Positions 13,858 through 58,741 are shown, counted from the stretch's first letter. The stretch: 64,000 nt of DNA from Clostridia bacterium (GCA_017558825.1 JAFYTO010000009.1:5617-69616); one strand, 5' to 3'. Notes: a model not told the origin generated them from the sequence alone. Program-made: numbers and translations.

Positions 13858-13858
13858 T

Positions 13859-41115: not shown

Positions 41116-41143
41116 TTGCAAAAATTTTGCTATATGTTATAAT
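41116..41143 (+). promoter_or_regulatory. Predicted sigma-A promoter of gyrBA
   Basis: TTGCAA (41116-41121), a 16-nt spacer, then an extended -10 TGtTATAAT (hexamer 41138-41143). Confidence 0.5.
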
Positions 41144-41203
41144 ATACTTAATATATTATATACTATATACAATATTTTGTTATTTGTTTTATAGGAGGGG
41201 TTT

Positions 41204-43129: not shown

Positions 43130-45688
43130 ATGGCTAAACAAATTATTAGTGAAGAATTATCTGCCGAATTTAAACGAACGCTTGGCATGACTAAACTTGT
43201 TGACATTGAAGTTAATGCCGAACTTAAACAAAGTTTCATTGACTACGCTATGGCCGTTAATAGGTCACGCGCTATTCCTGACGTTAGGGACGGTTTAAAA
43301 CCTGTTCACAGAAGAATACTTTACTCAATGAACGAAATGGGCTTAACGCCTGATAAACCTTATAAAAAGTGTGCTGCCATTGTCGGTGACGTGCTTGGTA
43401 AATACCACCCACACGGTGACAGTTCAGTTTACGATGCTCTTGTAAGACTTGCTCAAGATTTCTCAATAAATCTTCCGCTTGTTGACGGGCACGGTAACTT
43501 TGGTTCAGTTGACGGCGACCCTGCCGCAGCTTATAGATATACCGAAGCTCGTATGAGCAAACTTTCGCTTGAAATGCTTGCAGACATTGATAAAAATACA
43601 GTTGACTGCAAAGCAAACTTTGACGATACTCGTAAAGAACCTGTAGTTCTTCCTGCAAGATATCCTAACCTTTTAGTAAACGGTTCTGACGGTATTGCCG
43701 TTGGTATGGCAACAAATATTCCGCCACACAATTTAGGCGAGGTTATAGACGGTGCTATTGCGCTTATAGACAACCCTGAAATTACAGTTGATGAACTTAT
43801 GGAACACATTCCAGCGCCAGACTTTCCTACGGGCGGTATTTTAATGGGTAGAAGCGGAATTAGAAACGCTTACAGAACAGGCAGGGGCGGTTACGTATTG
43901 CGCTCTAAATGCGAAATTGAAGAGTATAACAACGGAACGCGCTCACGCATTATCGTTACTGAAATTCCATACCAAGTAAATAAGCAAAAACTTATTGAAA
44001 CTATTGCCGATTACGTTAAAGACAAGAAAATTGAAGGCATTGCTAATATTAACGATGAGTCTGACCGTCACGGTATGCGCATAGTTATTGATATTAAAAA
44101 AGATGCTAATCCGCAAGTTGTTTTAAATACTTTATATAAACAAACAAGGCTTCAAATTTCAGACGGTATTATTTTACTTGCTCTTGTTGGCACTGACCCT
44201 AAAGTATTAAATATTAAAGATATTTTATATTACTATTTACTTCATCAAAGAGACGTTATTAGAAGAAGAACTAAATACGACCTTGATAAAGCTGAAGAAA
44301 GATGCTTAATAGTTAAGGGCTTAATAAAAGCGCTTACAGATATTGATAAAGTTGTTGAAATTATTAAAACTTCACAAGATAGGCAAGAAGCTGCAAAACG
44401 CCTTACTGAAGAACTTGAGTTAGATGCTGAATTTAAACAAGCAAACGCAATACTTGATATGCGTTTACAAACCCTTACTCATTTGGCTGTAAGCAAACTT
44501 GAAAACGAATACGATGAATTAGTTGCCTTGATTGCAGACTATAAAGATATTTTAACTAACCCTCAAAGAGTTGATGCTATTATTAAGGAAGACTTAACGG
44601 TAATTAAATCTAAATATTCTGTTGAAAGAAAAACTGAAATGTCAGTTATGGAAGGCGATATTGAAGATGCTGCCCTTATTCCAGTGGAAGACGTTGTAAT
44701 TTCTATGACTAACTTAGGTTACGTTAAACGTATTCCTATTAGCGAATATCGTGCTCAAAGGCGCGGTGGAAAAGGCATTACAGGTCATAAACCTAAGGAA
44801 GAAGATTTCGTTAATAAAATGTTCGTATCTTCAACGCACGATGACATTATGTTCTTTACAAGCAAAGGTAGAGTGTTCCGCATAAAAGGCTACGAAATAC
44901 CTGAAGCACAAAGAACGGCACGTGGCAGGGCTATTGTTAACTTACTTCAACTTACAGACGGTGAAAAGGTAAATGCTATTATACCGGTAAAAGAAGGCGT
45001 TACAGGCTATATTGCAATGGCAACAAAGAAAGGTTTGATTAAAAAGACAGACCTTAAGGAATTTGACAGTATTAGAAAGACTGGTAAAATTGCAATTAGC
45101 TTAAATGAAGGCGATGAACTTGTTTCTATTCAATTTACCTCTGGTGAAGACGAACTCTTAATTGGCACTAAGAACGGTAAGTGTATAAGGTTCTACGAAG
45201 GTCAAGACGAAAAGGGTGTTTACGGCTTAAAGCCTATTGGACGTGATACTCAAGGCGTTAAAGCTATGGACCTTGACGATGATGACGAACTTGTTGGAAT
45301 GAGCGTTGTTAATAAAGATTTAGAGGTGTTAACAATTACTTCTAACGGTTACGGCAAGAAGAGCAGTCCTGAAGATTATAGAGTTCAAAAGAGAGCTGGT
45401 AAGGGCGTTAAAGCAGGTCAACTTAACGATAAAACAGGTAAACTTGTTTGTCTTACGTTCGTTGCCCCTGATGAAGACGTTATGCTCATTACCGATAACG
45501 GCATAATTATAAGAGTTAAATCAAGTGAAATTTCAACACTTTCACGCGATACGCAAGGCGTTATAGTAATGAGATTAAACGAAGGTCAAGTAGCAACGGT
45601 TGCAGTTGTTCCACACGAAGACGAAGAAGAAATTGTTGACGGAGTTGACGGTGGAGAAGAAATAGCTAGCGAAGAAACCGCAGAATAA
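43130..45688 (+). CDS. gyrA: DNA gyrase subunit A
   Basis: 852-aa ORF with the [17 protein letters not shown] (QRDR) region and the active-site [10 protein letters not shown]. The C-terminal tail is acidic. Confidence 0.95.
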
Positions 45689-45700
45689 TAAAAAATAAAA

Positions 45701-45728
45701 AAAAGCAAGGCAAACGCCTTGCTTTTTT
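45701..45728. repeat. Terminator hairpin, direct-repeat copy A1 (left boundary of cassette 1)
   Basis: AAAAGCAAGGCAAACGCCTTGCTTTTTT (stem GCAAGGC/GCCTTGC, loop AAAC). It is identical over 28 bp to 46368..46395. Confidence 0.9.
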
Positions 45729-45734
45729 TTAATA

Positions 45735-46049
45735 TTAATAATAGTAGTTTAATAAAGATGATAAAGAAATTCCGTAAATAATACCAAAAACAACAGATAT
45801 ACAAATACTAATTACAAAAGCCGTAACCCAACCACTCATAAAAGTTTTTCTTTCCTCAGTTTCAGGTTGGTATATACAAAGACCAATAATTAAGCCAATT
45901 AAGCCTAAAAAGAAACCTAATAAAAGCCCCATACCCTTTTTACTTTCACCAGTGCTTACAGGTGTATTTTTTTTGTTTGTTGCACACCCACAATTTGGGC
46001 AAATAATAGCATCATCATTTATCTCTTTGCCACAAGTTCTACAAAACAT
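45735..46049 (-). CDS. Zinc-ribbon membrane protein
   Basis: MFCRTCGKEINDDAIICPNCG (C-x2-C...C-x2-C) followed by two hydrophobic helices. The ATG at 46049 is preceded by AAAGGAGG. Confidence 0.7.
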   Translation of the reverse strand: MFCRTCGKEINDDAIICPNCGCATNKKNTPVSTGESKKGMGLLLGFFLGLIGLIIGLCIYQPETEERKTFMSGWVTAFVISICISVVFGIIYGISLSSLLNYYY

Positions 46050-46105
46050 AATAAATTCCTCCTTTGAATAAAACTGCATTATTTAATTGCACTGAATTTA
46101 TTATA

Positions 46106-46122
46106 TTCTCAAATATTGAGAA
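46106..46122. promoter_or_regulatory. Inverted repeat TTCTCAA-N3-TTGAGAA in the divergent promoter region of cassette 1
   Basis: Perfect 7-bp arms. A further TTCTCAA half-site lies at 46134..46140, just upstream of the XRE gene. Confidence 0.5.
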
Positions 46123-46160
46123 AGTCAAGTAATTTTCTCAAATTTTGATACAATTATAGT

Positions 46161-46364
46161 ATGAGTAATAAATTTTCTTACAATTTAAAAAAATTAAGAG
46201 TTGAAAGGGGATTGTCGCAAAAACAATTGGCGGAAGTTTTGCAAACTACGCTTAAAACAATTTCGCATTGGGAAACGGGCTATACGGAGCCGTCTATTGA
46301 TTTAATTTTAAGAATATCTACTTATTTTGATATTTCAACCGATGAACTTTTAGGAAAAGAGTAA
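46161..46364 (+). CDS. XRE-family helix-turn-helix transcriptional regulator
   Basis: 67-aa ORF with LKKLRVERGLSQKQLAEVLQTTLKTISHWETG, a canonical HTH_3. Confidence 0.85.
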   Translation: MSNKFSYNLKKLRVERGLSQKQLAEVLQTTLKTISHWETGYTEPSIDLILRISTYFDISTDELLGKE

Positions 46365-46367
46365 AAT

Positions 46368-46395
46368 AAAAGCAAGGCAAACGCCTTGCTTTTTT
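46368..46395. repeat. Terminator hairpin, direct-repeat copy A2 (right boundary of cassette 1)
   Basis: The same 28-bp sequence as 45701..45728. The flanking A/T runs differ only in homopolymer length. Confidence 0.9.
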
Positions 46396-46406
46396 AATGA
46401 TTTTAA

Positions 46407-47261
46407 TTATTCAATTTCGTCAAATACGCGCACGTAGTCGCATACAAAAGTGTCGTTTAATTCTTCTTCAGTCCAAGTAGTTTTTGGCTCGCCTTTACGG
46501 TAGCCTTGAATTTCCGTAGTAAGAAGAATAAATTGCTCAACTTGTGAAACTGGCTCATTTGTGCGTGAAACTTCCTTACCATCATAGTAAAAAACGTAAC
46601 CGTCTTTATTCCATTCTAAACCAACTCTATGAAACTCTCCGTCTTCCACGTAAGGGAATTTAACTCTACCTGCAGTTTTGCTATTTTCACTATAGCCGTC
46701 ATAAATGTTACCGCAAGTAAGGTTGCCGTTTACAAAGTTTTCAATAATATCGCTTTCAACGCCAACGTATTCAGGGTTTCCGCCTGCGCCTATGCTTGGA
46801 GATTGTATCCAAAACGCACTCCACCAAAATGGAAGCTTTTGGAATTTAATTCTTGCTTCATAGTAGCCAAATCTATGTGCAAACTTTGGCTTGTTATGTT
46901 TTTTAAGAGGCCAAATATAGTATTGTGGGTTAGTTGAACTTTCAGTTTTTAAAGTTTCAAGCCTATTTTTAACGTTGCCAAAAAGGTCTAAATCATCAAA
47001 ACTGTTGCCACCTGTTTGAAGTTGCGAAGAGCAGAGCATACCGTCAACTATAACAGGCTTAAATACTGCGTTACTGTTTCCGTCAAGCGTAACGCCCTTG
47101 TCGGTATACGCTAAAAATCTATCGCCCCAAAAGTTAAGGCGGTAATTCCAAACGTTTTCGTTTAAAACTGTACCGTCAAACTCGTCACTAAACACTAATT
47201 CCCACTTTTTACCGTCAGGCAAAATGCTGTATTCGTGGTCTTTAACTTCAAATTTTTGCAT
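46407..47261 (-). CDS. Glycoside hydrolase family 16-like protein without a signal peptide
   Basis: 284-aa ORF with the E-x-D-x-x-E catalytic pattern in VESDIIENF and an N-terminal WELVFSDEFDG motif. The N-terminus is not hydrophobic. Confidence 0.7.
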   Translation of the reverse strand: MQKFEVKDHEYSILPDGKKWELVFSDEFDGTVLNENVWNYRLNFWGDRFLAYTDKGVTLDGNSNAVFKPVIVDGMLCSSQLQTGGNSFDDLDLFGNVKNRLETLKTESSTNPQYYIWPLKKHNKPKFAHRFGYYEARIKFQKLPFWWSAFWIQSPSIGAGGNPEYVGVESDIIENFVNGNLTCGNIYDGYSENSKTAGRVKFPYVEDGEFHRVGLEWNKDGYVFYYDGKEVSRTNEPVSQVEQFILLTTEIQGYRKGEPKTTWTEEELNDTFVCDYVRVFDEIE

Positions 47262-47275
47262 AAAATGCCCTCAAA

Positions 47276-47569
47276 TTAGTCAATTTCGTAGTCAACTGCA
47301 ACGGAACTTACAATGCGCTCGTGCATATATTTTTTAACCACTTCAACGTGATATTTATCGTTTTGATATTCGTTTAACTTATCTAAACTTTCAACAACTA
47401 CTTGCAAAATAAGGTCGTAGTTTCTATCGCTTTTAACTTCGTTTTGTCCAACTTCTATTCCCCAAATTGTAGGAACTTTTGTAACCATACTCATTAAAAC
47501 GTTAGTTGCTTTTTCAAGTTCGTCAACCGAATTATCTTTAAGTTTAAAACATACAACGTGCTTAATCAT
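47276..47569 (-). CDS. Dabb (stress-responsive A/B barrel) domain protein
   Basis: 97-aa ORF. It starts MIKHVVCFKLKD and has a YDLILQVVVES region typical of Dabb. Confidence 0.75.
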   Translation of the reverse strand: MIKHVVCFKLKDNSVDELEKATNVLMSMVTKVPTIWGIEVGQNEVKSDRNYDLILQVVVESLDKLNEYQNDKYHVEVVKKYMHERIVSSVAVDYEID

Positions 47570-47570
47570 T

Positions 47571-47735
47571 TTACCAATCCTGCCTATCGCTTATTTTAAT
47601 ATCGTCATAATACTCAAAGTATTTTGACTTAAATTTTGCCGTTTCCGCCTTAGCTTTAGCTTTTTTAATTTGTTCTATAGTAGGTTTTTCTTCCTTTTTA
47701 GGCGGTTGTAAATTCTTTTTATTCTCGTTTTCCAT
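47571..47735 (-). CDS. Candidate small protein (54 aa, Lys/Glu-rich), below the ORF-track cutoff
   Basis: By hand translation: [54 protein letters not shown]. It fills the whole mnmG-Dabb gap. Its start overlaps the mnmG stop, and its stop lies 1 nt before the Dabb ATG. There is no clear SD. Confidence 0.35.
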   Translation of the reverse strand: MENENKKNLQPPKKEEKPTIEQIKKAKAKAETAKFKSKYFEYYDDIKISDRQDW

Positions 47736-49596
47736 CGTTTGATTTTAGCCATACCATAAGCACCGCAATATCTGCAGGGTTTACGCCGGAAATTCTTGAT
47801 GCTTGGTCAAGGTTAAGTGGCTTTACCTCGTTTAATTTTTCTCTTGCTTCAACACGCAAGCCGTTAATGTTTAAATAATTGATATCATCGCCAAGCAACT
47901 TATTTTTTAATTTTTCTGCTTTTTTAATGCTATCAAGTTCTTTTTTAATGTAGCCGGCGTATCTAACGTCTGTTTCAACGGTTTCTAAAATATCAAAAGG
48001 AATACCTTCAAAAGCGTTAAATTGCTCTTTAATGAGTTTTATAGATATTCCTCGCTTAATCATATCTTCGTAAGTTATTGCGCCGTAAATTTCGCCTGTA
48101 GAATTCTTTGTAACAAAGTCGTAGGCTTGCTTATATGGTACGGAAGTTTTAAGTTCTTCATTAGCGCGTTTAGTAATTTCACACCTATCTAAATAAACTT
48201 GCCACCTTTCATCATCAACAAGCCCAAAATTTCTACCTATTTCAGTCAAGCGAACGTCAGTATTATCTTGCCTTAAAATAAGGCGATATTCCGCGCGTGA
48301 AGTCATTATTCTATACGGTTCGTTAGTGCCTTTTGTAACTAAGTCGTCAATCAAAACGCCAGCGTAGGCTTCGTTTCTACCTAAAACGAGCTGTGGTTTA
48401 TTTTTCATAAGCATACTTGCGTTTAAGCCAGCAATTAAGCCTTGCACGGCGGCTTCTTCATATCCGCTTGTTCCGTTAATTTGACCAGCAGTAAATAAAC
48501 CGCTAACGTTTTTATATTCAAGGGTAGGCTTAAGGTCTAAACTATCAATACAGTCGTATTCTATAGCGTAGGCGTAACGCATAAAGTGCGCGTTTTCAAA
48601 ACCTTCAACAGAGCGATACATTTGCTCTTGTACGTCAACTGGCATTGAAGAAGACATACCTTGTACGTAAACTTCATTAGTGTCAACGCCTTCGGGCTCT
48701 AAAAAGATTTGATGGCGCTCTTTATCTGAAAATCTTACCACCTTAGTTTCAATAGAAGGGCAGTAACGTGGGCCTGTAGTAGTAATAACGCCGTTATATA
48801 GTGGAGACCTTTCTAAATTGCTTAAAATAATTTGTTTTGTTTGTTCGTTGGTATAACCTAAATAGCAAGGCGTTTGTTCCTTTTTTAGCTCTTTTGTCAT
48901 GTAAGAGAAAGGGTAAACGTCTGTTTCGCCGTCTTGCACGGTAAATTTAGAATAGTCAATAGTTCTGCCGTCAAGGCGGGCAGGAGTGCCCGTTTTAAAA
49001 CGGCGAATTTTAAAACCCAAACGAATAAGAGCATCAGTTAAATAAGTTGCGTTTTGAAAGCCGTTAGGCCCGCTAAATTTTTTATATTCACCAATAACAA
49101 TATCGCTATTCAAATACACGCCGGTTGCAACTACTACAGTTTTGCAGTTGAGCAACGTATTAAAGTTAGTAACAACGCCTGTAACAGTGCCGTTTTCCGT
49201 TAAAATATCAGTTGCTTCGCATTGAATAATAGATAAATTAGGCGTATTTTCAAGCGTTTTTTTCATTTCTCTATGGTAAGCGTTTTTATCCGCTTGCGCT
49301 CTAAGAGATTGAACAGCAACGCCTTTACCACGGTTAAGCATTTTAATTTGGAGCATAGTTTTATCTATATTCTTGCCCATTTCGCCACCTAAAGCGTCAA
49401 GTTCACGAACTAAATGCCCCTTTGCCGTGCCGCCTATAGAAGGGTTGCACGCCATAAATGCAATAGCGTCTAAGTTTATTGTTAGAAGCGCGGTTTTATT
49501 ACCCGTGCGGGCAAGTGCCAAGGCAGCCTCGCAACCAGCGTGGCCTGCACCTATAACAACCGCGTCATAATTGTCAATTTTAATATAGTTATTCAT
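47719..49596 (-). CDS. mnmG: tRNA uridine 5-carboxymethylaminomethyl modification enzyme MnmG (GidA)
   Basis: 625-aa ORF with the FAD motif VIGAGHAGCEAA, plus GPRYCPSIE and TSRAEYRL. Confidence 0.95.
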   Translation of the reverse strand: MNNYIKIDNYDAVVIGAGHAGCEAALALARTGNKTALLTINLDAIAFMACNPSIGGTAKGHLVRELDALGGEMGKNIDKTMLQIKMLNRGKGVAVQSLRAQADKNAYHREMKKTLENTPNLSIIQCEATDILTENGTVTGVVTNFNTLLNCKTVVVATGVYLNSDIVIGEYKKFSGPNGFQNATYLTDALIRLGFKIRRFKTGTPARLDGRTIDYSKFTVQDGETDVYPFSYMTKELKKEQTPCYLGYTNEQTKQIILSNLERSPLYNGVITTTGPRYCPSIETKVVRFSDKERHQIFLEPEGVDTNEVYVQGMSSSMPVDVQEQMYRSVEGFENAHFMRYAYAIEYDCIDSLDLKPTLEYKNVSGLFTAGQINGTSGYEEAAVQGLIAGLNASMLMKNKPQLVLGRNEAYAGVLIDDLVTKGTNEPYRIMTSRAEYRLILRQDNTDVRLTEIGRNFGLVDDERWQVYLDRCEITKRANEELKTSVPYKQAYDFVTKNSTGEIYGAITYEDMIKRGISIKLIKEQFNAFEGIPFDILETVETDVRYAGYIKKELDSIKKAEKLKNKLLGDDINYLNINGLRVEAREKLNEVKPLNLDQASRISGVNPADIAVLMVWLKSNDGKRE

Positions 49597-49597
49597 A

Positions 49598-50946
49598 TTA
49601 TTTTTTCAAAATCAAGTTTTTAATGTCGCTAACCGAGGTTGCAATTTTATCGCTAAACTTAATAAGTTCCGCAATTTTATCGCGAGAGTGAATAATGGTA
49701 GTGTAATTTTTACCACCAAGTTCTTCGCCAATAGTAACAAGTGGAATAGACATAAGTTCCGTCATTAAATATGCGCAAATTTGGCGTGGAATAACAAGTT
49801 CTTTGTTACGCTTTTTAGAAGTTAAGTCAGCCTTAGAAATTTTATAGTAAGTGCAAACTGTATTTATGACTTTTGAAGCAGAAATACTTTCTTTAATTTC
49901 GCTTGTAACGCTATCCTTAAGCGCCTCCATTGCAAGAGGTAAACTGATAGGCTCTTCGTGAAGGGTAGAGAAGAATATAACTCTATTAAGCATACCTTCT
50001 AAACTTCTAACGTTGTCTTCGCTATTTTCAGCCATAAACATAGCAACGTCAAGCGGTAAAATGAATTTTTTATATTCGGCTTTCTTTTGTAAAATTGCAA
50101 CTTTTGTTTCAACGTCTGGCGCTAAAACCTGAGCTTTTAAACCGCCTTCAAAACGAGTTCTTAATCTTTCGTCTAAAAGTTCAATTTTGCTTGGCTCACA
50201 GTCTGCAGATAAAACAATTTGCTTGTTTTCACCATAAAGAGCGTTAAAAGTATTAAAAAATTCTTCTTGAGTCGTTTCTTTGCGTGCTAAGAATTGCACG
50301 TCATCAATAATTAAAACGTCAACGTTGCGATATTTATTTCTAAAATTTTCGCCTTCTTGAGAGTAAGCTTTGCCCGTTTTAATGTTTGTAATAAGTTCTG
50401 TTGTAAACTTTTCGCAAGTAGAGTAAAGAACTTTCTTTTTAGGCATTGTTTTGTGTATATGGTTTGCAATTGCTTGCATTATGTGCGTTTTACCAAGACC
50501 AGAAGCACCGTAAATAAAGAGTGGGTTATAAGAATCTCCTGGGGCTTCGGCTACAGCTTTTGCCGCAGCGTATAAATAACGGTTAGAACCGCCTACAACA
50601 AAAGAATCGAACGTATATTTAGGGTCAATAGGCGAAGATTCAATATGAATTTTATCTTCTCCAAACAAATCATCTTTACTTTCTAAGTATTCTTTTTTGC
50701 TAGAGCCTTGGAAAATAACTATATCAGTAACGCCGGTATTAAGTTCTTTAAGTTTATCTACAATTTTCGTTTTAAGGTTAGTTCTTATCGTTTTTGCAAA
50801 AACCTCTGCTTTTGTAAGCAACACTAAAGTTGAGCCAACCAAATCGATAGGCTCAAGAACCTTTATAAAAGTAGTGTAATTTGCCGTAGAAATTGAATTT
50901 TCTAATTCGGGCAAGGCTTTTTTCCAAATAATTTCGTAACTTTCCA
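49598..50946 (-). CDS. dnaA: Chromosomal replication initiator DnaA
   Basis: AAA+ Walker A GASGLGKTH, box VII, and a C-terminal DNA-binding domain (GGKNYTTIIHSRDKI). The ATG at 50946 is preceded by GGAG; the ORF-track start at 50959 is a non-ATG codon. Confidence 0.95.
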
Positions 50947-51098
50947 TAAAAAACTCCAATAAAAGCGGTTAAACTTTTGTTTATTTTTGCAAAATGTGAT
51001 AAAATATACTTAAGAATACATTAAAAATGCGCAATTTTATACTTGTAAAGTATATTATATAATAAATTAGCGCAAAAATCAATTATTAAAGTATCAAA

Positions 51099-52226
51099 AT
51101 GTTTATAAAAAATTTAATTTTAAAAAACTATCGCAATTACGAATATCAAGAATTTAACTTTTGTAACGGCGTAAATATTTTAACTGGTGACAATGCTCAA
51201 GGTAAAACCAACTGTGCCGAGGCTATTTTTTATCTTTGCACGGGCTATTCGCCAAGGGCAACGCGTGATAAGCAAGTTATTAAGTACGGGCAAGACAGTG
51301 CAAAAATTATTGGCACCGCAACTTCTAGCTACGGCAACGTTGAAGTTGAATTGAGTTTTTATAACAACGCTAACAAAGGCATTAAAATAAACGGCGTTCC
51401 TATTAAAAAAATAGGCGAACTTATGGGCAATATAAATTCAGTTTTCTTTAACCCGGGCGAACTTAAGCTTATTCAAGAAAGCCCAGAAGATAGGCGCAGG
51501 TTTATGGATATTTCACTTTCGCAAATGAGCAAGCGTTACTTTTACGCGCTTCAAAAATATCGCAAAGTGTTAGAACAACGTAACGACCTTTTAAAGTCAA
51601 ACGACAAGCAAACTATTTACGATACGCTCTCTTTTTGGGACGAGCAGCTTGCCGTTTATGCCGAAACAATTATCAAAGAAAGGCTTTTGTTTATTGAAAA
51701 ATTAGTTCCACTTGCAAAAAAAGCGCACTCGTATATTACTGGTAACAGTGAAGAAATTTCAATTTCTTTAGAAGCTCAATATTTAGATGAAGAAGACGAG
51801 TTTTTGCAAAGCCCAACAAGCCATTTAGAAAAAGACGTTAAAAAGTGCTTGTTATTAGCATTAACAAAACGTATTGAAAAAGACATTGCGCTTGGATATA
51901 CCAGCGTAGGCCCACACCGCGACGATATTAAAATTAAAATAAATAATGAAGACGTAAGGCTTTACGGCTCTCAAGGTCAACAAAGAACAAGCGCACTTTC
52001 GCTTAAACTTGCCGAACTTGAAGTGTTTAAAAATAGGTTTAACGAATACCCGGTTTTAATTTTAGACGATGCTTTTAGCGAGCTTGACAAGTCTAGGCGT
52101 TCACGCTTACTTAGCTACGTTGACGGCGTTCAAACAATTATAACCTGTACTGACGTAACAGAAGATATGTTAACAAGCAGTAATATTAAAGTATTTAATA
52201 TTAAAAACGGAAAAATTGAAGAATAA
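51099..52226 (+). CDS. recF: DNA replication and repair protein RecF
   Basis: 375-aa ORF with NYRNY, Walker A GDNAQGKTN, signature GSQGQQRT and Walker B LILDDAFSELD. Confidence 0.93.
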   Translation: MFIKNLILKNYRNYEYQEFNFCNGVNILTGDNAQGKTNCAEAIFYLCTGYSPRATRDKQVIKYGQDSAKIIGTATSSYGNVEVELSFYNNANKGIKINGVPIKKIGELMGNINSVFFNPGELKLIQESPEDRRRFMDISLSQMSKRYFYALQKYRKVLEQRNDLLKSNDKQTIYDTLSFWDEQLAVYAETIIKERLLFIEKLVPLAKKAHSYITGNSEEISISLEAQYLDEEDEFLQSPTSHLEKDVKKCLLLALTKRIEKDIALGYTSVGPHRDDIKIKINNEDVRLYGSQGQQRTSALSLKLAELEVFKNRFNEYPVLILDDAFSELDKSRRSRLLSYVDGVQTIITCTDVTEDMLTSSNIKVFNIKNGKIEE

Positions 52227-52231
52227 TATGC

Positions 52232-52259
52232 AAAAAACCACGGTAAAAACCGTGGTTTT
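52232..52259. repeat. Terminator hairpin, direct-repeat copy B1 (left boundary of cassette 2)
   Basis: AAAAAACCACGGTAAAAACCGTGGTTTT (9-bp stem AACCACGGT/ACCGTGGTT). It is identical over 28 bp to 53151..53178. Confidence 0.9.
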
Positions 52260-52768
52260 TATGTTAAATTTTCATATAAATTTATGATTTGCTTTTTATT
52301 TTTAATGGCGTAATCATAAGCAATTTTAGTTCCGCTATTACGCCTTGCAGGCGCAAAAATATCGCGCTTGCTTTGTTTTTTTCTTGTAGGTAAATAATTT
52401 TTATTATAGTAAAAAACACAATAAGTTGAAAGGTTAATCATTTCATAATTTCGCTCAACATACGAATATTTGCCTGCGTTTTCTATTTTTTTAGGAAAGT
52501 AAGTTTCTTCGTATGATTGTAACAACATTTCAGTATAAGATGTGTTTATATACTGAAAAGCCGCCCTTACATAAACACGCTTAATAAATGGATATTCGTT
52601 TTTGAGTTGCGTTACTATTTCCCAAGACAAATCGTCAAATTCGCTATTGCTACCAAACAAAAAAGTTGTAGCGCCTTTTTTTATTAGTAAAATCACGGTT
52701 TCTTTTAATAAAATTTTTAGTTTTTCACTTATTTCAATATTTTTATGACCTATAAAGCAAACTTGCAT
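52259..52768 (-). CDS. SLOG-superfamily protein, DUF1273 / YpsA-YoqJ-like
   Basis: 169-aa ORF. It is colinear with Bacillus YpsA-type proteins: VCFIGHKNI (vs AITGYKP), TTFLFGSNSEFDDLSWEIV (vs ILISGQLGVELWAAEAA), and EYPFIKRVYV (vs EYPDLKVAVI). SD AAGGTG. Confidence 0.6.
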   Translation of the reverse strand: MQVCFIGHKNIEISEKLKILLKETVILLIKKGATTFLFGSNSEFDDLSWEIVTQLKNEYPFIKRVYVRAAFQYINTSYTEMLLQSYEETYFPKKIENAGKYSYVERNYEMINLSTYCVFYYNKNYLPTRKKQSKRDIFAPARRNSGTKIAYDYAIKNKKQIINLYENLT

Positions 52769-52780
52769 AGCGCACCTTTA

Positions 52781-52910
52781 TTCGTGGAATTCCACAAATA
52801 ATTATACAAAATTTACAACATAAAGTCAATATCGTGGAACTCCACGAGATAAAATTTTGTAGAATTCATATAATAATTTCGTGGAAAAACATAAAGGAAC
52901 TCCACGAAAG
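52781..52910. promoter_or_regulatory. Array of palindromic operators (consensus TCGTGGAAyTCCACGA) in the divergent promoter region of cassette 2
   Basis: Site 1 is TTCGTGGAATTCCACA (52781-52796), containing a 12-bp perfect palindrome. Site 2 is TCGTGGAACTCCACGA (52832-52847). Site 3 is split: the left half TTCGTGGAA (52878-52886) and the right half GGAACTCCACGAA (52896-52908) abut the SD of the HTH gene. Confidence 0.65.
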
Positions 52911-52917
52911 GTGAAAT

Positions 52918-53151
52918 ATGAATATAAATGATGCAATAATTAAAAGAATTGAAGAAATTTGCAATGAAAAGAATATTAACATTTGCGGAGCAGCATTAAA
53001 TGGTGGAAAATCGCCATCCGCAATATATGATTTAATTAAAGGTAGAACAAAATGCTCAAAAGTTTCTACAATAAAAGCCTTTTGTCAAGGCGCAGGAATA
53101 ACTTTATCTCAATTTTTTGATAAAGATTATTTTAATGATTTTGAAGATTAA
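52918..53151 (+). CDS. Small helix-turn-helix (XRE/Cro-like) regulator
   Basis: 77-aa ORF with SD AAAGGTG. It has a short HTH-like core (SPSAIYDLIKGRTKCSKVSTIKAFCQGAGITLSQFF). It is divergent from the SLOG gene. Confidence 0.6.
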   Translation: MNINDAIIKRIEEICNEKNINICGAALNGGKSPSAIYDLIKGRTKCSKVSTIKAFCQGAGITLSQFFDKDYFNDFED

Positions 53152-53178
53152 AAAAACCACGGTAAAAACCGTGGTTTT
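53151..53178. repeat. Terminator hairpin, direct-repeat copy B2 (right boundary of cassette 2)
   Basis: The same 28-bp sequence as 52232..52259. Confidence 0.9.
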
Positions 53179-53189
53179 ATTTTTTTATT

Positions 53190-53393
53190 TTATCCCATTA
53201 AAACTTCGCTAATAACTTCTAAAACTTTTTGGTAGCAGCCGCCGCAACCTGTTGAGCAATGAGTAACGTTTTGCACGTCTTCAAAAACTCTAATAGCGTC
53301 TTCCATTTTAGTGTGGTTATGTAATGCTTTAGCAATGTCTGCATAGCTTACTTGTTTACAGTTGCAAATCATATAGTTTTCTTTATTTTCCAT
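53190..53393 (-). CDS. BFD-like [2Fe-2S]-binding domain protein
   Basis: 67-aa ORF with a C-x-C...C-x2-C cysteine pattern (ICNCKQV ... CSTGCGGCYQKV). SD AGAGGTG. Confidence 0.7.
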   Translation of the reverse strand: MENKENYMICNCKQVSYADIAKALHNHTKMEDAIRVFEDVQNVTHCSTGCGGCYQKVLEVISEVLMG

Positions 53394-53411
53394 AGTAACA
53401 CCTCTTATTAG

Positions 53412-54869
53412 TTAGCGTTGTTTTTTATTTTTTCTTTTTTCTTTTAATGCTAATTTTTGCGCTTTTAAATATGCGCGTTTTTCAGCACTAGTCATAACAA
53501 TAGGGCTTTTTGTAGGCTCATCTACTGCTGATTTAATAGAGTAATAAACGTATTTATTAGCGACTTTTACAGGTTTATTTACAAATTTTAAGTAATTTTC
53601 ACTAATATTTTCAGTTAAATCAATAGTAATTTTGCCAACTGCAAATGCAGGAAGTTCGTAAATTTTAGAAGTCATACATTCGCTATAACTAGCGTATGGA
53701 TTTATGTAGTTTTTCTTCCTTAACATTTTTGCTATTTTACGCCTTACTTTATTTTCACGTTTAACGCGTTTAAAGTTAAAGTAGTTGAATAGGTATGTAA
53801 TGAATAAAACTCTATTTTTAAATTTGGCAAGTAATTTTAATTTGCGTTTTAAAAGCCTTAATTGAAGTCTATAATTTTTATCGCCAATTTCGCAAGTTAT
53901 TAAATCGCAAATAATAATTGAGTTTTTGCCTAATTTAGTAACGTATGGTAAAAGTTTTTTAAATGATTTTTTATTAATTTCTGCTGATAAATTATAATAG
54001 TCAACCTTTAATTTTGTAGCCGTTTCAAACGCAATAGAAAGCGATGGTTTATCAATTTCGCTTGCAGCCAAACCGTTACTGCCTAAAAATACAATATTTT
54101 TAGAAGGCATTTCGTACACTTGTGGAATTTCAGTTAAACCCTCAACTCCAACAAATAATACGTTGCGTGTAGGAAGTAATATACGAACTACGTTGTTTGC
54201 AAAACCTTTATTAGCCTTTTTAGCGTCTTTTTTAGAAACTTTTTTAGGAACGGCTGGAATAAGGGATTTTTCAAAAACGTATTCTAAAACCTCATCATCC
54301 TTTATAATAAGCGAATAATCTTTGCCAGCAAAGTAATTTCCAAAGTAAACTTCTACTTGTGCAGGGGATTGACCGTTTAAAAGTTTAAGTTTAATGCTAA
54401 CCGTATCTGAAACGAGTTTAAATCTTAACTCTGTGCCGAGTGAAAGGTCGTTGAAAGTTTTATACGGTTCAAGAACGCTTTCTTTAAGAGTATCTTCTTC
54501 AGTTTGCTCTACTTCTTCAGCCTCGTTTTCTTCTTGAATTTCTTCACTCTCTGTTTCATCTTGAACTTCTTCAGTTTCGCTGTCTTGAATTTCTTCTATT
54601 GCTTCAGGTTCAGCGTTTTCAGCAGGTTCTAAAACGTCAGCTTGTTCGGCATCGTTTACTTCTAAAGCTTCATTTATGTTATTGGCATTTTCTTCAAAGT
54701 TAGGAATAGTTTCTTTGTTAGAAACAGTTACTTTGTTTTTATTTTTGCCTGAAGACTTTTGAAATAAAACGTCATCATCAAAACGGCTAAGTAAATAATT
54801 GCCGTCTTCATCTTTTTTCATTAAATTTACGTTGTGAAAATAAATGTTATTGTAATACATAAAATACAC
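53412..54869 (-). CDS. Hypothetical protein with a roughly 65-aa poly-acidic insert and a basic C-terminus
   Basis: 485-aa ORF. The acidic tract is EQADVLEPAENAEPEAIEEIQDSETEEVQDETESEEIQEENEAEEVEQTEED. The C-terminus is KRAYLKAQKLALKEKRKNKKQR. No family was recognised. Confidence 0.55.
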   Translation of the reverse strand: MYFMYYNNIYFHNVNLMKKDEDGNYLLSRFDDDVLFQKSSGKNKNKVTVSNKETIPNFEENANNINEALEVNDAEQADVLEPAENAEPEAIEEIQDSETEEVQDETESEEIQEENEAEEVEQTEEDTLKESVLEPYKTFNDLSLGTELRFKLVSDTVSIKLKLLNGQSPAQVEVYFGNYFAGKDYSLIIKDDEVLEYVFEKSLIPAVPKKVSKKDAKKANKGFANNVVRILLPTRNVLFVGVEGLTEIPQVYEMPSKNIVFLGSNGLAASEIDKPSLSIAFETATKLKVDYYNLSAEINKKSFKKLLPYVTKLGKNSIIICDLITCEIGDKNYRLQLRLLKRKLKLLAKFKNRVLFITYLFNYFNFKRVKRENKVRRKIAKMLRKKNYINPYASYSECMTSKIYELPAFAVGKITIDLTENISENYLKFVNKPVKVANKYVYYSIKSAVDEPTKSPIVMTSAEKRAYLKAQKLALKEKRKNKKQR

Positions 54870-54986
54870 CTTTTAATTATAATATCACAAAAAATACTAT
54901 TTGTAAATAGTGTTAAAGTCGCTTTTTGTAGTTTTTTAATATAAATATTAAAATGGTGTAGCCTTTTGTAAGGCCACACCAATTTT

Positions 54987-55961
54987 TTAACGCTCTTCTC
55001 TAAAGTAGTTTACGCCAAGTGATGCAGGCGGTTGTGCCTTTTTAGAGCCCGTTATGCTTATGCCAAGTAATACTAAAATTGTTACTACGTAAGGTATAAG
55101 TTCAATTGCCTTTTTAATAGCCGTTTGAGCAGTAATTGCCGCAACGATATTAGTGTTAGGTAAGATGTATAACGCGCCGAATAAAATTGAGCCGAATATT
55201 GCAAGGTTTGGTTTCCAAAGTGTAAAGATAACGAGAGCAATAGAAAGCCAACCAAGTGATTCCATTATATAATAACTGTCGTAGCCACCTTGAATATAGT
55301 CTAATATAAAGAAGCAACCTGCAAGGCCTGCAATGCCAGAGCCAAGTAAAATTGCCGTATATTTGTATTGGTCAACTTTAATACCAACTGCGTCTGCCGC
55401 GGCAGGGTTTTCACCAACTGCGCGTAAGCGAAGACCTACTTTTGTATTCTTTAAAATAACCGCCGTTACAATGGCAATAGCAATAGCAAGGTAAACGAGT
55501 ATTCCGTGTGATAAGAATATTTCACCAAACCAACCAAGGCTACTTGCAAAAGGAAGGCTGTATTTAAAAAGTGTTGAAGCCGTTGAAATTAAACCGATTT
55601 CAACAAAGTTTTTCATAATAAATTGGGTTAAGCCCGTGCTAAACGTTGTTAAGGCAAGACCTGTAATGTTTTGGTTACATTTAAGTGAAACCGTTAAAAA
55701 CGCGTAAATTGCGCCCATTAAACTTGCAACTATAAACGCGCTAACTACTGCAATTAAAATAAGTAACACGTAGTTAGGCGTAGCGCCGTTAAGTGCTTTC
55801 ATATAAAGCGTAACGCCAAGTGAGCCACCCGCACCGCCTGCACAAATAATGCCAGGAATACCAAGGTTTAAGTGGCCGGACTTTTCAGTAATAATTTCGC
55901 CCGTGCAACCAAAAAGGAAGAAAGGCATAAATCTAATTGCACTTACTAAAACTGCTAACAT
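54987..55961 (-). CDS. ABC transporter permease (BMP/nucleoside-type, NupQ/RnsD-like)
   Basis: Polytopic ORF. The ATG at 55961 is preceded by AAGGAGGG. It is the last gene of the BMP-type ABC operon. Confidence 0.8.
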   Translation of the reverse strand: MLAVLVSAIRFMPFFLFGCTGEIITEKSGHLNLGIPGIICAGGAGGSLGVTLYMKALNGATPNYVLLILIAVVSAFIVASLMGAIYAFLTVSLKCNQNITGLALTTFSTGLTQFIMKNFVEIGLISTASTLFKYSLPFASSLGWFGEIFLSHGILVYLAIAIAIVTAVILKNTKVGLRLRAVGENPAAADAVGIKVDQYKYTAILLGSGIAGLAGCFFILDYIQGGYDSYYIMESLGWLSIALVIFTLWKPNLAIFGSILFGALYILPNTNIVAAITAQTAIKKAIELIPYVVTILVLLGISITGSKKAQPPASLGVNYFREER

Positions 55962-55962
55962 T

Positions 55963-57135
55963 TTACTCACCCTCCTTTTCATTTTCGTTCAATGGTTTTT
56001 TCTTTTTAAAGATATTTGCAAAAAACGCTTTAATTTTGTTAAGTTTTGCGGTTACTTGTGGGTTAAACACTATTTTATATTGAATAAAGAAAGCGCACGC
56101 AATAATAAAGAAGTAAACAATACCAATTACCAAGTTAGAAATTGTATCGTCAAGCATACCAAAGTTTGGTCTAACTTTTTGCATGCCTTTTGTAACGAAT
56201 ACAACTAAACCGCAAGTTGCTATTGCAAAAAGTGGGTTACAGTTAGCAAGCCAAGTTGTCATAATAGCGGTAAAACCACGGTTTGCAGCCGTATCTGCGC
56301 TAATACTGTTAGATGTGCCACTCGTTAAAAGTAAGCCTACTAAACCGCAAATTGCGCCAGATAAAATTAAAGTTCTAATAATTACTTTTTTAACGTTAAT
56401 GCCAATGTATTTTGCCGTATTTTGACTGTCGCCAACAACGGAAAGTTCATAGCCGTGTTTTGAGTATTTTAAGTAAATTGTAATAATTGTTGTAATAAGT
56501 ATGCCAAATAAAATAATTAACAAATACTTATTTCCAAGTTCAGGAAGTTTACCGTTTGCAAGCGGATTTAAAATACCCGAGCCACCTTTTACCCAAATTG
56601 CTATAAACAAGTTTACTAAACCTGCCGCAATATAGTTAAGCATTAAAGTAAAGAGTGATTCGTTTGTATTCCAAAGCGCTTTACAAATTGCCGGAATAAC
56701 CGCCCAAATTGCACCTGCTAAAATACTTGCAAAAACTTCAATAACTATTAAAAGCGTATCGTCAACTTTGCCGCCTAAATAGTATGAACAAGCAATGGCG
56801 GCTAAACCGCCCATTAAAATTTGACCGTTACCACCCAAGTTCCAAAACTTCATTTTAAATGAAACTATAAGTGCCATAGAAACTGCTAATAAAATAGCAA
56901 ATTCTTGTAAGAAAAGCCAAAATAAACGGGTAGTGCCAAAGCAACCTTCAAAAAGTGAAGAGAAGAATTTGATTACGTCGCCACGCGTTGAAACGAGCGA
57001 ACAAATAATTGCACCAAGTAAAAGGGACGCTACAATTGCTATTGCGTAAATAGCAATTTTTTTGCCAAGAGTTATATTATCTCTCTTTACAATGTGTAAA
57101 AGGGGTTCGCGTACTGTTTTTGTATTATTAGTCAT
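55963..57135 (-). CDS. ABC transporter permease (BMP/nucleoside-type, NupP/RnsC-like)
   Basis: Polytopic ORF. The ATG at 57135 (MTNNTKTV) is preceded by GGGGGA and overlaps the ATPase stop. Confidence 0.8.
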   Translation of the reverse strand: MTNNTKTVREPLLHIVKRDNITLGKKIAIYAIAIVASLLLGAIICSLVSTRGDVIKFFSSLFEGCFGTTRLFWLFLQEFAILLAVSMALIVSFKMKFWNLGGNGQILMGGLAAIACSYYLGGKVDDTLLIVIEVFASILAGAIWAVIPAICKALWNTNESLFTLMLNYIAAGLVNLFIAIWVKGGSGILNPLANGKLPELGNKYLLIILFGILITTIITIYLKYSKHGYELSVVGDSQNTAKYIGINVKKVIIRTLILSGAICGLVGLLLTSGTSNSISADTAANRGFTAIMTTWLANCNPLFAIATCGLVVFVTKGMQKVRPNFGMLDDTISNLVIGIVYFFIIACAFFIQYKIVFNPQVTAKLNKIKAFFANIFKKKKPLNENEKEGE

Positions 57136-58741
57136 TGTCGTTATCCCCCATATTTTCATTTTTTAAGTGTTCTTGTTGCCACTCTTCTTCAGTTAAGTTA
57201 CTGTCTTTTGCTTTGCCGTATTCTTTATTCTTAATTTCACTTAAGTCAAGTGAGCCCGTCATCATAAGGCCAAGTTCTTCTTTATTAGTCTTTTTAGCGT
57301 GAACTATACCCATATTCTTGCCGTGGCAAAGAACCATAATCTTGTCGCAAAGGGCAAGCATAACGTCTAAGTCTTCACCTATAAATAAAATGCCAGTGCC
57401 GTTTGCCTTTTGGTCGTTTAATATATTGTATATAGCGTAGGATGAGTTAATATCAAGTCCGCGTACAGGGTAGGCGGTTACAATTACGTTTGGCGAAGAT
57501 TCAATTTCTCTACCAACTAAAACCTTTTGTACGTTACCGCCTGATAAACGCCTTACAGGCGTTTCAGTTGACGGAGTTACAATTTCAAGTTTTTTAATTA
57601 ACTCTTCCGCATTTTTTCTTGCAGTTTTTCTATCAACGAATATGCCTTTATTATTGTTATAGGTTTTAAGCATCATATTGTCAGTTATTGAAAAGTTTGG
57701 TGCTAAACCCATACCAAGTCTATCTTCAGGAATAAAACTCATTGATATGCCTTTTTCAATAATTTGTTTAGCAGGTAAGCCAACAATGCTTTCGCCCTTA
57801 TGGCAAATTGCACCGCTTTCAATTTTCCTTAAACCTGCAATTGCTTCACAAAGTTCTTTTTGACCGCAACCTGCAATACCTGCAACACCTAAAATTTCGC
57901 CGCCACGGATATAAAAACTTACGTCTTCAATCTTTTTAGACCCGTCGTCGCCTTTAATATTTAAGTTTCTTAATTCAAGTAAAGGTTTGTCAAAGTCCGT
58001 TTCAGTCCTTTCAATTTTAAGGTCTATTTTTTTACCAACCATCATTTCCGTAAGTTGCTTTTCGTTAGTGTTTGACGTTTCAACCGTGTCAACGTATTCG
58101 CCTTTTCTTAAAATGGCAACTCTGTCGGAAATTTCCATAACTTCGTTAAGTTTATGAGTGATTATAATAATTGATTTACCGTCTTCACGCATTTTTCTTA
58201 AAACGTCAAAGAGTTTTTTAGTTTCTTGCGGAGTTAAAACGGCGGTAGGTTCGTCAAGTATTAAAATGTCAGCTCCTCTATACAAAACTTTAATAATTTC
58301 AACCGTTTGCTTTTCGGAAACAGCCATATTGTAGATATATTTTTTTGCATCTATTTCAAAACCGTATTTTGAAGCAATTTCTTCAACACGGGAATTTACT
58401 TTTTTAAGATTAAATTTTTCATTTATGCCCAAAACAATATTTTCGGCAGCGGTAAACACGTCAACAAGTTTAAAGTGTTGGTGTATCATACCTATTTTAT
58501 ATTTGAACGCATCTTCAGGAGAAGAAATTACAACTTCTTTTCCATCAATAAAAATTTGACCTTCGTCCGGATAATAAATACCAGAAATCATATTCATAAG
58601 CGTGGTTTTACCAGAGCCGTTTTCGCCAAGAATAGATAAAATCTCGCCTTTTTTAAGCGTCAAATTCACGTTATTGTTGGCAACTACTTTGCCAAACGTT
58701 TTTGTAATATTTTTAAGTTCAAGGGCAACGCTATTATTCAC
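57128..58741 (-). CDS. ABC transporter ATP-binding protein with duplicated ATPase domains (nucleoside/sugar type)
   Basis: Two nucleotide-binding domains (Walker A GENGSGKTT in the first; LSGGNVQK signature in the second). The probable start is GTG 58741, 7 nt after GGGAGA. Confidence 0.85.
   Translation of the reverse strand: MNNSVALELKNITKTFGKVVANNNVNLTLKKGEILSILGENGSGKTTLMNMISGIYYPDEGQIFIDGKEVVISSPEDAFKYKIGMIHQHFKLVDVFTAAENIVLGINEKFNLKKVNSRVEEIASKYGFEIDAKKYIYNMAVSEKQTVEIIKVLYRGADILILDEPTAVLTPQETKKLFDVLRKMREDGKSIIIITHKLNEVMEISDRVAILRKGEYVDTVETSNTNEKQLTEMMVGKKIDLKIERTETDFDKPLLELRNLNIKGDDGSKKIEDVSFYIRGGEILGVAGIAGCGQKELCEAIAGLRKIESGAICHKGESIVGLPAKQIIEKGISMSFIPEDRLGMGLAPNFSITDNMMLKTYNNNKGIFVDRKTARKNAEELIKKLEIVTPSTETPVRRLSGGNVQKVLVGREIESSPNVIVTAYPVRGLDINSSYAIYNILNDQKANGTGILFIGEDLDVMLALCDKIMVLCHGKNMGIVHAKKTNKEELGLMMTGSLDLSEIKNKEYGKAKDSNLTEEEWQQEHLKNENMGDNDND

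Follow-up and report, generated by a model that had tools for sequence, protein, structure and literature searches.

Two divergent gene pairs bracketed by duplicated terminators on either side of dnaA

We analysed a 64-kb stretch of Clostridia bacterium DNA (GCA_017558825.1, JAFYTO010000009.1:5617-69616), hereafter the window, whose positions are counted from its first nucleotide, and in particular two small gene cassettes that lie on either side of the dnaA region, each bracketed by two copies of one hairpin (H1 for cassette 1, H2 for cassette 2). In the left part, gyrA (+) is followed by H1, a Zn-ribbon gene (-), an XRE-family helix-turn-helix (HTH) gene (+), a second H1 and a GH16-like gene (-). 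Then come Dabb, sm54 (a 54-aa gene), mnmG and dnaA, all on the minus strand, and recF (+), after which the right part comprises H2, a YpsA/DUF1273 SLOG gene (-), a 77-aa HTH gene (+), a second H2 and a BFD-like [2Fe-2S] gene (-), with the gene of a 485-aa acidic protein (p485) and ATP-binding cassette (ABC) transporter genes to its right (Table 1). We refer to the interval from gyrA to Dabb as site 1, to that from recF to the BFD-like gene as site 2, and to the species of the window as W; the closest genome in the species collection is a Christensenellaceae metagenome-assembled genome whose DnaA is 89% identical.

The sequences of H1, AAAAGCAAGGCAAACGCCTTGCTTTTTT, and H2, AAAAAACCACGGTAAAAACCGTGGTTTT, are each identical at 28/28 positions between their two copies, which stand in direct orientation. 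Window shuffles give an expectation of 0 matches for exact repeats of this type, and the two pairs rank third and fourth among the longest exact direct repeats of the 64 kb. Whichever strand is folded, each of the four copies forms a 7-bp G+C stem that is closed by a 4-nt loop and extended by A/U pairs; the folding energies are -16 to -21 kcal/mol on both strands and the z values -4.4 to -7.4 (-21.1 kcal/mol on both strands for H1 copy a). Since folding and a terminator scan find both the stem-loop and a U-run on both strands, H1 and H2 qualify as bidirectional intrinsic terminators. They are closely fitted to the genes around them: 3–12 nt separate the stem from the stop codon of the cargo gene and 11–17 nt the hairpin from the stop codon of the flanking core gene, and the T-run of H2 copy a provides two bases of the SLOG stop codon. 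The preliminary description of this stretch, drawn up from the window alone, had reported exact 28-bp direct repeats that contain a whole stem-loop and lie at convergent core-gene junctions provided with bidirectional terminators, and our data agree with it on both counts.

It had also raised the possibility of an assembly artefact, to which a chance resemblance between independent terminators can be added. The general form of these hairpins (A-run, 7-bp stem, 4-nt loop, T-run) is indeed common: a metagenome scan with a degenerate H1/H2 pattern matched 78 contigs, all from unrelated organisms, which indicates that hairpins of this form are generic terminators, and it yielded three exact H1 or H2 matches in foreign contexts and no further strains. 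This commonness does not account for an identity of 28/28, nor for the fact that each of the 13 other perfect-stem terminator-like hairpins of the window is unique. The same layout is present in at least five independent assemblies of species W, and the multi-unit arrays described below are seen in two or three assemblies. Finally, one sample contains two Logan contigs that break off at the H2 copies or slightly beyond them (L082 after the 77-aa HTH gene, L085 after the BFD-like gene), which is where an assembler is expected to break at a real 28-nt repeat. For practical purposes, artefact and chance are therefore both refuted.

Table 1. Window positions of the hairpins, cassette features and flanking genes at sites 1 and 2
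Feature	Position	Strand	Remarks
gyrA	43130..45688	+	conserved left flank of site 1
H1 copy a	45701..45728		bidirectional terminator at the gyrA / Zn-ribbon gene junction; stem GCAAGGC/GCCTTGC, loop AAAC, A- and T-runs
Cassette 1 predicted target gene	45735..46049	-	104 aa; N-terminal zinc ribbon and two hydrophobic segments; Pfam Zn_Ribbon_1, E 1e-5
Cassette 1 control region	46100..46149		promoter TTGACT-17-TATAAT (46128..46100) for the (-) gene, 11/12 match
Cassette 1 palindrome TTCTCAAATATTGAGAA	46106-46122		repeated half-site 46134-46149; read from the sequence
Cassette 1 predicted repressor gene (HTH67)	46161..46364	+	67 aa, XRE-family HTH; Pfam HTH_3, E 1e-17
H1 copy b	46368..46395		between the HTH and GH16-like genes; exact 28-nt repeat of copy a
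GH16-like gene and Dabb gene	46407..47569	-	right flank of site 1; GH16 variable among species
recF	51099..52226	+	conserved left flank of site 2
H2 copy a	52232..52259		bidirectional terminator at the recF / SLOG gene junction; stem CCACGGT/ACCGTGG, loop AAAA
Cassette 2 predicted target gene (SLOG169)	52259..52768	-	169 aa, YpsA/DUF1273 (SLOG); Pfam YpsA PF06908
Cassette 2 control region	52781..52908		promoter TTGACT-17-TATAAT (52829..52801) for the (-) gene
Cassette 2 palindromes, three CGTGGA..TCCACG (TCGTGGAACTCCACGA-type)	52781-52798, 52832-52847, 52878-52908		read from the sequence
Cassette 2 predicted repressor gene (HTH77)	52918..53151	+	77 aa; homologous to an HTH_26 protein
H2 copy b	53151..53178		between the HTH and BFD-like genes; exact 28-nt repeat of copy a
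BFD-like [2Fe-2S] gene	53190..53393	-	right flank of site 2; begins a block much more divergent between species

Cargo and control regions of the two cassettes

In both cassettes, as previously described, a small minus-strand gene diverges from a small plus-strand HTH gene, with palindromes in between. The target open reading frame (ORF) of cassette 1 stays open up to 46079, but it is the start at 46049 that is preceded by a ribosome-binding site, AGGAGG, and the protein is 104 aa long in public assemblies. Homologues of this Zn-ribbon membrane protein with 57–80% identity are paired with an HTH gene elsewhere, and it has no characterised relative. The target protein of cassette 2, SLOG169, passes the YpsA family profile (PF06908, 28.4 bits for a cut-off of 27.7) and has more than 2000 homologues, several of which are named DUF1273 or YoqJ by their source. 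YpsA overproduction inhibits cell division in Bacillus subtilis and Staphylococcus aureus, and YoqJ is a prophage paralogue of YpsA (PMC6459960). As for the HTH proteins, the best NCBIfam matches of HTH67, to phage RstR and to the VC1465 Xer activation factor, are generic and below the cut-offs, and HTH77 has no Pfam match above threshold. Note that a TACAAT/TATAGT-like -10 region immediately precedes the start of the HTH67 gene and that no ribosome-binding site is visible, which suggests that its mRNA may be leaderless, as for some phage repressors.

Each cassette forms a transcription unit of its own, with a bidirectional terminator at either end. Within the control regions, the palindromes and the strong promoter of the target gene overlap. 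The control region of cassette 1 is conserved in two of the sister species examined below (B and C), and the cassette 2 palindrome beside the -35 box is identical in species C and at a distant locus, L186. Judging from this arrangement, the HTH protein probably represses its divergent small gene in each cassette, and each unit looks like an autoregulated repressor–target pair, so that "effector plus repressor" is a fair description of the cargo, its function being predicted. Exact cargo proteins were found by protein look-ups in their own genomic context only. We dropped membership of a known defence system, the PADLOC families having given generic HTH matches only, and a phage or plasmid origin, since a viral contig scan was empty, no plasmid matched and a single faecal phage record gave a weak match (32%).

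Arrays of hairpin-bounded units at site 1

We compared four species of one genus, 85–88% identical in dnaA plus mnmG: W, species A (loci L100, L102, L104, L105 and L106, with a mutual identity of 97.6–99.9% in these genes), species B (locus L001) and species C (loci L185 and L192). Across the four species, site 1 occurs in five states and holds one to three units with n+1 copies of H1 for n units; the expectation that further examples would exist in relatives is thus borne out at this site. In W, a single unit, ZnR-HTH67 (the Zn-ribbon and HTH67 genes), stands between two H1 copies, followed by GH16 and Dabb. In species A, L102 and L105 display gyrA, H1, a unit termed p153-HTH87, H1, ZnR-HTH67, H1, a 450-bp array of short hairpins, another terminator and Dabb. 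L104 has the same arrangement minus the ZnR-HTH67 unit and minus one H1, and the flanks of its remaining joint equal exactly the outer flanks of the two corresponding H1 copies of L102; in L100 and L106, gyrA is followed by H1, p153-HTH87, H1 and Dabb. In species B, gyrA is followed by H1', a small TM2-like ORF with ZnR-HTH67, H1'', repetitive extragenic palindromic sequences (REPs) with a truncated REP-associated tyrosine transposase (RAYT) gene, a terminator and Dabb, H1' and H1'' differing in the loop alone. Finally, species C has gyrA, H1, a REP array with an intact RAYT gene, H1, ZnR-HTH67, H1, two ZnR paralogues, GH16 and Dabb. The same hairpin thus brackets three unrelated types of unit (ZnR/HTH, DUF1273/HTH and RAYT with REPs) in W, A and C. 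The 18-nt stem-loop of H1 is identical in 8/8 copies from W, A (L102) and C. We do not regard this conservation as exceptional, as the terminators of the M50 peptidase and permease genes also keep their stems between W and B.

The p153-HTH87 unit is a distant homologue of cassette 2 of the window (SLOG169 versus p153, 25% identity, E 1e-6; HTH77 versus HTH87, 28%, BLASTP E 4e-11), the YpsA match of p153 being below threshold and HTH87 clearly matching HTH_26 (Pfam, E 6e-9). Hence one cargo family occurs at two sites with two hairpins, H1 in A and H2 in W.

The ZnR-HTH67 unit has H1 on both sides in 4/4 species, and its nucleotide identity between W and A or B (80–82%) reflects a divergence similar to or above that of the core genes (86–89%); cassette 1 is therefore ancestral in the genus and not a recent insertion, and the A strains without this unit have, most simply, lost it. 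The units are polymorphic between species A strains whose core genes are 99.1–99.9% identical, and since L106 and L102 are 99.9% identical in core genes yet carry different site-1 alleles, these differences are recent. Species A is, moreover, mosaic: the partial p153 of L104 shares only 80% identity with its L100 counterpart, and recF is 91–96% identical compared to 98% for dnaA, which argues for frequent recombinational import at these sites. Finally, relative to the ZnR unit, the RAYT unit is found on one side in B and on the other in C, and the REP array of C includes a half-H1 relic of the B type, two features that together point to unit reordering.

The preliminary description had suggested looking beyond the window for an HUH enzyme, and RAYT, which sits at site 1 in species B and C, is such an enzyme. 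The species C copy (L192 4350-5225) is intact (NCBIfam REP_Tyr_transpos, 80.6 bits for a cut-off of 80; Pfam Y1_Tnp, E 9e-6) and the species B copy (L001 about 13700-14320) is truncated. Species C has three inverted REP doublets, GTAGGGGAGCATTCAATATGCTCCC and GTAGGGGCGGATTCCATATCCGCCC; one REP is located within the transposase coding sequence. One could thus imagine that the hairpins are the ends of non-autonomous IS200/IS605-like elements mobilised by RAYT in a HUH (Y1) transposition, all the more so as IS200/IS605 ends bear similar hairpins in direct orientation. We consider this very improbable. The REP hairpins (5'-GTAGGGG...) are unrelated to H1, and neither H1 nor H2 contains GTAG, the 5' motif of the REPs recognised by RAYTs; the REP sequences of the sister species are absent from the window, which has no Y1 gene; elements having their own two ends would give 2n hairpins, not n+1, and Y1 elements leave no target direct repeats. 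With an H1 on either side, the RAYT unit resembles the other cargo in this respect, which, together with the unrelated REPs, leads us to treat RAYT as a passenger and not evidently the agent.

Three other features of the sister loci were observed. In species C, GH16 and the H1-bounded unit are separated by the two extra Zn-ribbon membrane protein paralogues (40–44% identical; L192 2777-3598). Between H1 and Dabb, species A has about 12 tandem units of 19–20 nt (AGTTATATTTGC-TATC-GCA), each forming a tiny hairpin, together with TGTGGATG motifs and a stretch rich in A+T (L102 4974-5257, also L104). In species B, it is site 2 that is filled by a comparable series of short hairpins (L001 about 8440-8600); no RNA family from Rfam matched at either site or in these arrays.

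The hairpins as putative recombination joints

The comparison of near-identical strains, which differ by exactly one unit plus one hairpin, leads us to our best reading, one that we hold as possible though short of probable, namely that the hairpin copies are the recombination joints at which units are gained, lost and reordered; the crossover within the hairpin and its catalyst are what we infer here. The two terminators of a unit are copies of one piece of DNA, and an exchange between two direct copies would release the unit as a circle with a single hairpin. Run backwards, the reaction would add or reorder units, as would whole-allele replacement through the conserved flanks. The catalyst might be a site-specific recombinase encoded elsewhere, for which the dyad-symmetric core of the terminator would serve as an att site, or else general short-homology recombination. 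Such joints would provide the most economical account of the duplicated copies, the unit-plus-hairpin differences, the intense recombination and the changing order of units.

Several observations weigh against such joints. First, a divergent pair placed between convergent genes creates two convergent junctions, each of which needs a bidirectional terminator, so that the n+1 count is partly a consequence of gene orientation and it is the identity of the terminators alone that calls for an explanation. Second, the units lack non-coding arms that could bind an integrase, and the extent of identity around the hairpins (28, 34 or about 40 nt depending on the pair) is a poor fit to a fixed crossover site, while 28 bp is short for a RecA-dependent exchange. 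Third, the search for an enzyme was negative: no ORF of at least 110 aa in the window matches a recombinase, transposase or reverse transcriptase family, and about 10 site-1 and 4 site-2 alleles contain no recombinase other than RAYT. Fourth, as exact cargo proteins are confined to their own context, there is no documented recent movement between loci. In the same alleles, a small sample to which the search was limited (complete genomes were not searched), we found neither an autonomous integrase element with the same att site nor a relic of one, and the Rfam gathering-level matches of the window and four related loci include no group II intron, of which class IIC inserts after terminators. 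The earlier statement that no integron, HUH or group II enzyme is encoded in the window is hence upheld, for ORFs of at least 110 aa and by Rfam.

The last points on this side come from site 2. Species C has an orthologous cassette 2, the SLOG gene being 86.7% identical at the nucleotide level (86.8% for core genes) and the HTH gene 97% identical, and it retains H2 next to recF, the loop being longer by one A. On the BFD side, its hairpin has an unrelated stem (GACTGGC-TAAAAA-GCCAGTC; CCACGG in the W stem), although the A-run, the loop and the T-rich flank align with those of W, the loop TAAAAA and the runs being common to both. Hairpin duplication therefore need not date from the insertion. 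The duplicate may already have existed in the ancestor, one copy having later been exchanged in C, or it may have arisen in W, where H2 would have been copied over a different hairpin. In species A, site 2 is empty and holds a single terminator, GCTAACGAA-ATA-TTCGTTAGC, which is a third sequence and not H2; in species B, the BFD gene is absent altogether. Between W and A or B, the permease (57% identity) and p485 (61–63%), which lie to the right of site 2, are far more divergent than dnaA and recF to its left (89–92%), so that the empty site of A is not a clean pre-insertion picture; the divergence step marks site 2 as a likely boundary of recombination or replacement. Over the whole right-hand block (window 53190-57159 versus L100, L001 and L185), p485 is 51–63% identical and the permease 57% identical in A and B but 96% in C, and from recF to gyrA, to the left of site 2, identity between species is 89–97%. 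The differing BFD-side stem of C and the third terminator of the empty site speak against the simple reading in which insertion duplicates the target terminator. As for the insertion logic said to be shared by the two cassettes, their common grammar and its recurrence in relatives stand; the proposed mechanism that copies terminators finds no support in cassette 1, which is ancestral, or in cassette 2, which is orthologous in C.

The site-2 data speak for a rival explanation in which terminators are copied locally, one of two originally different stem-loops being overwritten by a copy of its neighbour through ectopic gene conversion or through replication template switching with both ends in the shared A- and T-runs; in that case, the duplication would say nothing on how the cargo arrived. 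Such copying would account for orthologous cassettes 2 whose BFD-side flanks align and whose stems differ completely, for the presence of yet another stem at the corresponding position in species A, for the fact that the identity of the W repeats stops inside homopolymer runs, and for the two unrelated terminators found around most homologous modules elsewhere. We nevertheless consider it unlikely, if a serious contender. The original hairpins would have had only homopolymer runs and a loop in common, which is very little homology for conversion, and copying leaves unexplained the precise unit-plus-hairpin differences between near-identical strains, the presence of H1 on three unrelated types of unit at site 1, and a 28-nt repeat that is not a terminator (locus L199, see below). 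The direction of the change between W and C would require an outgroup.

Homologous modules in other genomes

The DUF1273/HTH family is widespread (more than 2000 and more than 700 homologues for two subfamilies) and found in unrelated contexts. In L186, a module with a SLOG protein 68% identical and an HTH protein 93.5% identical to those of W sits between convergent aroQ and GH35 genes; the homology to W begins exactly at one stop codon and ends exactly at the other, and the terminators on the two sides are not alike. L077 has a SLOG homologue beside dnaA with a divergent small ORF resembling a ribbon-helix-helix protein and different terminators. Among ZnR/HTH modules, that of L194 is found where MscL and MFS genes converge, and its two hairpins differ from each other, while one side of that of L193 shows a hairpin resembling H1, with identical 11-nt arms but a different loop. 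Another, unrelated Clostridia genome (L199; same layout in L200-L208) has an HTH_26/DUF1273 module, 63% identical to the p153 of A, that is flanked by a 28-nt imperfect direct repeat (26/28; 2068-2095 and 3062-3089), AAAAC[C/T]TCCAATTT[C/T]TTATGCAAATTGC; this repeat has a palindrome, ATGCAAATTGCAT, is not a terminator and may be an insertion scar or an att site. When left and right flanks were compared against a cross-locus background, the test was significant only for the H1 pairs, the H2 pairs and L199. We therefore abandoned the idea of old, diverged duplicates around L186 and L193, whose left/right flank similarity is not above that background.

A terminator-type hairpin duplicated around a segment of 0.3–3 kb was found in none of 79 dnaA-region loci from other Clostridia (1.36 Mb); the other duplicated hairpins of these loci are operator-like palindromes, rRNA-region repeats or REP-like elements. 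Note that L076 (11600-12960), from a high-G+C Clostridiales, has beside dnaA a three-gene cassette, with two XRE-type HTH genes plus a small one, which is flanked by REP-like repeats of at least about 60 nt (…CCCCCTTTTTGAAAGGGGGTGGCA.CGCGCTAGCGCTGACGGGGGATTGCC).

The L199 repeat bears on another mechanism, target-site duplication, in which an integrase encoded elsewhere would make staggered cuts about 28 nt apart at a palindrome and attach a linear cassette there, and gap repair would copy the terminator. CRISPR repeat duplication by Cas1-Cas2 and casposon integration are parallels on a smaller scale. This scheme would explain why three independent repeats of about 28 nt (H1, H2 and L199), all with a palindrome, flank such modules and why, within one cargo family, the repeat changes with the site; in addition, a target that had once been duplicated could be hit again and again, and n+1 arrays with a site-specific repeat and any cargo would result. 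It remains improbable in our opinion. That homologous modules elsewhere mostly bear two different terminators counts against an insertion that duplicates its target terminator, as does the heterologous hairpin next to the orthologous cassette of C. Moreover, the units run from stop codon to stop codon with no terminal inverted repeats or conserved ends, the repeat extents vary from 28 to about 40 nt, the window encodes no such enzyme, no empty site with a single matching hairpin was found, and cassette 1 is ancient, so that no fresh event is observed.

Comparison with known cassette systems

Among known systems, the closest to putative hairpin joints is that of integrative elements and cis-mobilizable elements (CIMEs), which accrete in tandem at the 3' end of conserved genes (Guedon et al. 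2017, PMC5704250). In both cases, att-type direct repeats (28–40 nt here) surround units devoid of recombination genes at the end of a conserved gene (here gyrA or recF), n units go with n+1 repeats, the repeat has dyad symmetry and is specific for the site and not for the cargo, which is heterogeneous, and units are lost, added and reordered. CIME accretion relies on an enzyme supplied in trans, for which a recombinase encoded elsewhere is here only a candidate. The differences lie in the small size of the present units (0.65–0.9 kb), which have no non-coding arms and no integrase or transfer-gene relics, in the repeat, which is a complete intrinsic terminator, and in the fact that no integrase-bearing element was seen at either site.

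Next in proximity are integron cassette arrays and clusters of attC sites lacking integron-integrases (CALINs; Cury et al. 2016, PMC4889954). As in CALINs, the cargo is compact and unrelated from unit to unit, the hairpin sites are homogeneous within an array, the genes abut the sites and there is no adjacent integrase; as in integrons, each unit is followed by the repeated site (one to three units and n+1 hairpins at site 1), and cassette birth is not understood in either. attC sites consist of R''-L''...L'-R' boxes (RYYYAAC ... GTTRRRY) with an imperfect stem and extrahelical bases over about 57–141 nt (PMC4889954). H1 and H2, unlike them, have perfect 7-bp stems over 18–36 nt, no R/L boxes, no extrahelical bases and no GTTRRRY, and the present cassettes, unlike those of integrons, have their own promoters and regulator. 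No complete integrons were found in Firmicutes (PMC4889954).

The minimal mobile elements of Neisseria (PMC3082526, PMC1538595) also consist of alternative small cassettes located between the same conserved genes without mobility genes, and they are exchanged by homologous recombination in the flanks (PMC3082526, PMC1538595). They are not delimited by repeats, whereas here the same hairpin is present at every unit boundary. Target-site-duplicating transposons differ from the present units, which have no shared terminal motif and no fixed repeat length. Phage morons, which Juhala et al. are said to have described in 2000, are reportedly autonomous units with their own promoter and factor-independent terminator, inserted between genes that are adjacent in relatives. 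In contrast to morons, the present units are chromosomal, comprise two genes and are regulated, their terminators are duplicated, and they have no phage or plasmid matches. Xer-dependent dif modules and integrative mobile elements exploiting Xer (IMEX) use 28-bp dyad sites and a host recombinase, their modules being bounded by shared sites and commonly carrying small regulatory or toxin–antitoxin-like cargo. H1 and H2 are likewise 28 bp long, have dyad symmetry and can be written as 11-6-11, but they stand in direct orientation and beside dnaA, not at the terminus or on plasmids; by eye, they are unlike the known dif sequences, including that of Bacillus. Our literature searches for duplicated terminators around inserted genes found no description of such an arrangement.

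Were the hairpins genuine joints, an intrinsic terminator would at the same time delimit a cassette, and small regulated genes could come, go or change order without disturbance to neighbouring operons, which would bear on the origins of integron-like cassettes and on why convergent-gene junctions are hot spots of gene gain. A bolder proposal, which we regard as rather doubtful, is that uncultured, Christensenellaceae-like gut Clostridia possess a hairpin-specific recombination system that uses ordinary bidirectional terminators at convergent-gene junctions as att sites to build and shuffle integron-like arrays of tiny self-regulated cassettes by means of a recombinase encoded elsewhere; this would constitute a functional counterpart of integrons in Firmicutes, in which new cassettes would be born with a ready-made terminator. 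Even if nothing more than short-homology recombination or the copying of terminators is at work, the locus would illustrate clearly how, in nature, duplicated terminators make gene content modular, and it would warn that flanking direct repeats need not mark an insertion event. The cargo deserves attention as well, in that a SLOG/YpsA relative and a Zn-ribbon membrane protein, both uncharacterised, are under predicted tight repressors.

Other features of the window

In species A, the M50 peptidase gene and gyrB are separated by an inserted MarR plus DegV gene pair (L100 15994-17314; window counterpart 41003-41203) that W and B lack. No duplicated hairpin flanks this pair, and A differs from W and B in its peptidase terminator. 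A look-up of sm54 retrieved strains of the window's type only. The gene order of the origin region is unusual (window 49598-51098), with mnmG, not dnaN, after dnaA and with recF divergent from dnaA; no cluster of DnaA boxes was found in the 64 kb, one-mismatch matches amounting to 9 for 13 expected. Two RNA elements are above the Rfam gathering threshold: a T-box leader upstream of the gene of a pyridoxal phosphate (PLP)-dependent enzyme (window 29578-29806, -) and a purine riboswitch upstream of a phosphoribosyltransferase gene (window 60838-60937, -). Finally, the left part of the window encodes a 1397-aa protein with Listeria-Bacteroides repeat domains (1430-5623, -), the gene of which contains near-exact internal repeats (4487-4580 and 4913-5006) with a spacing of 426 nt.

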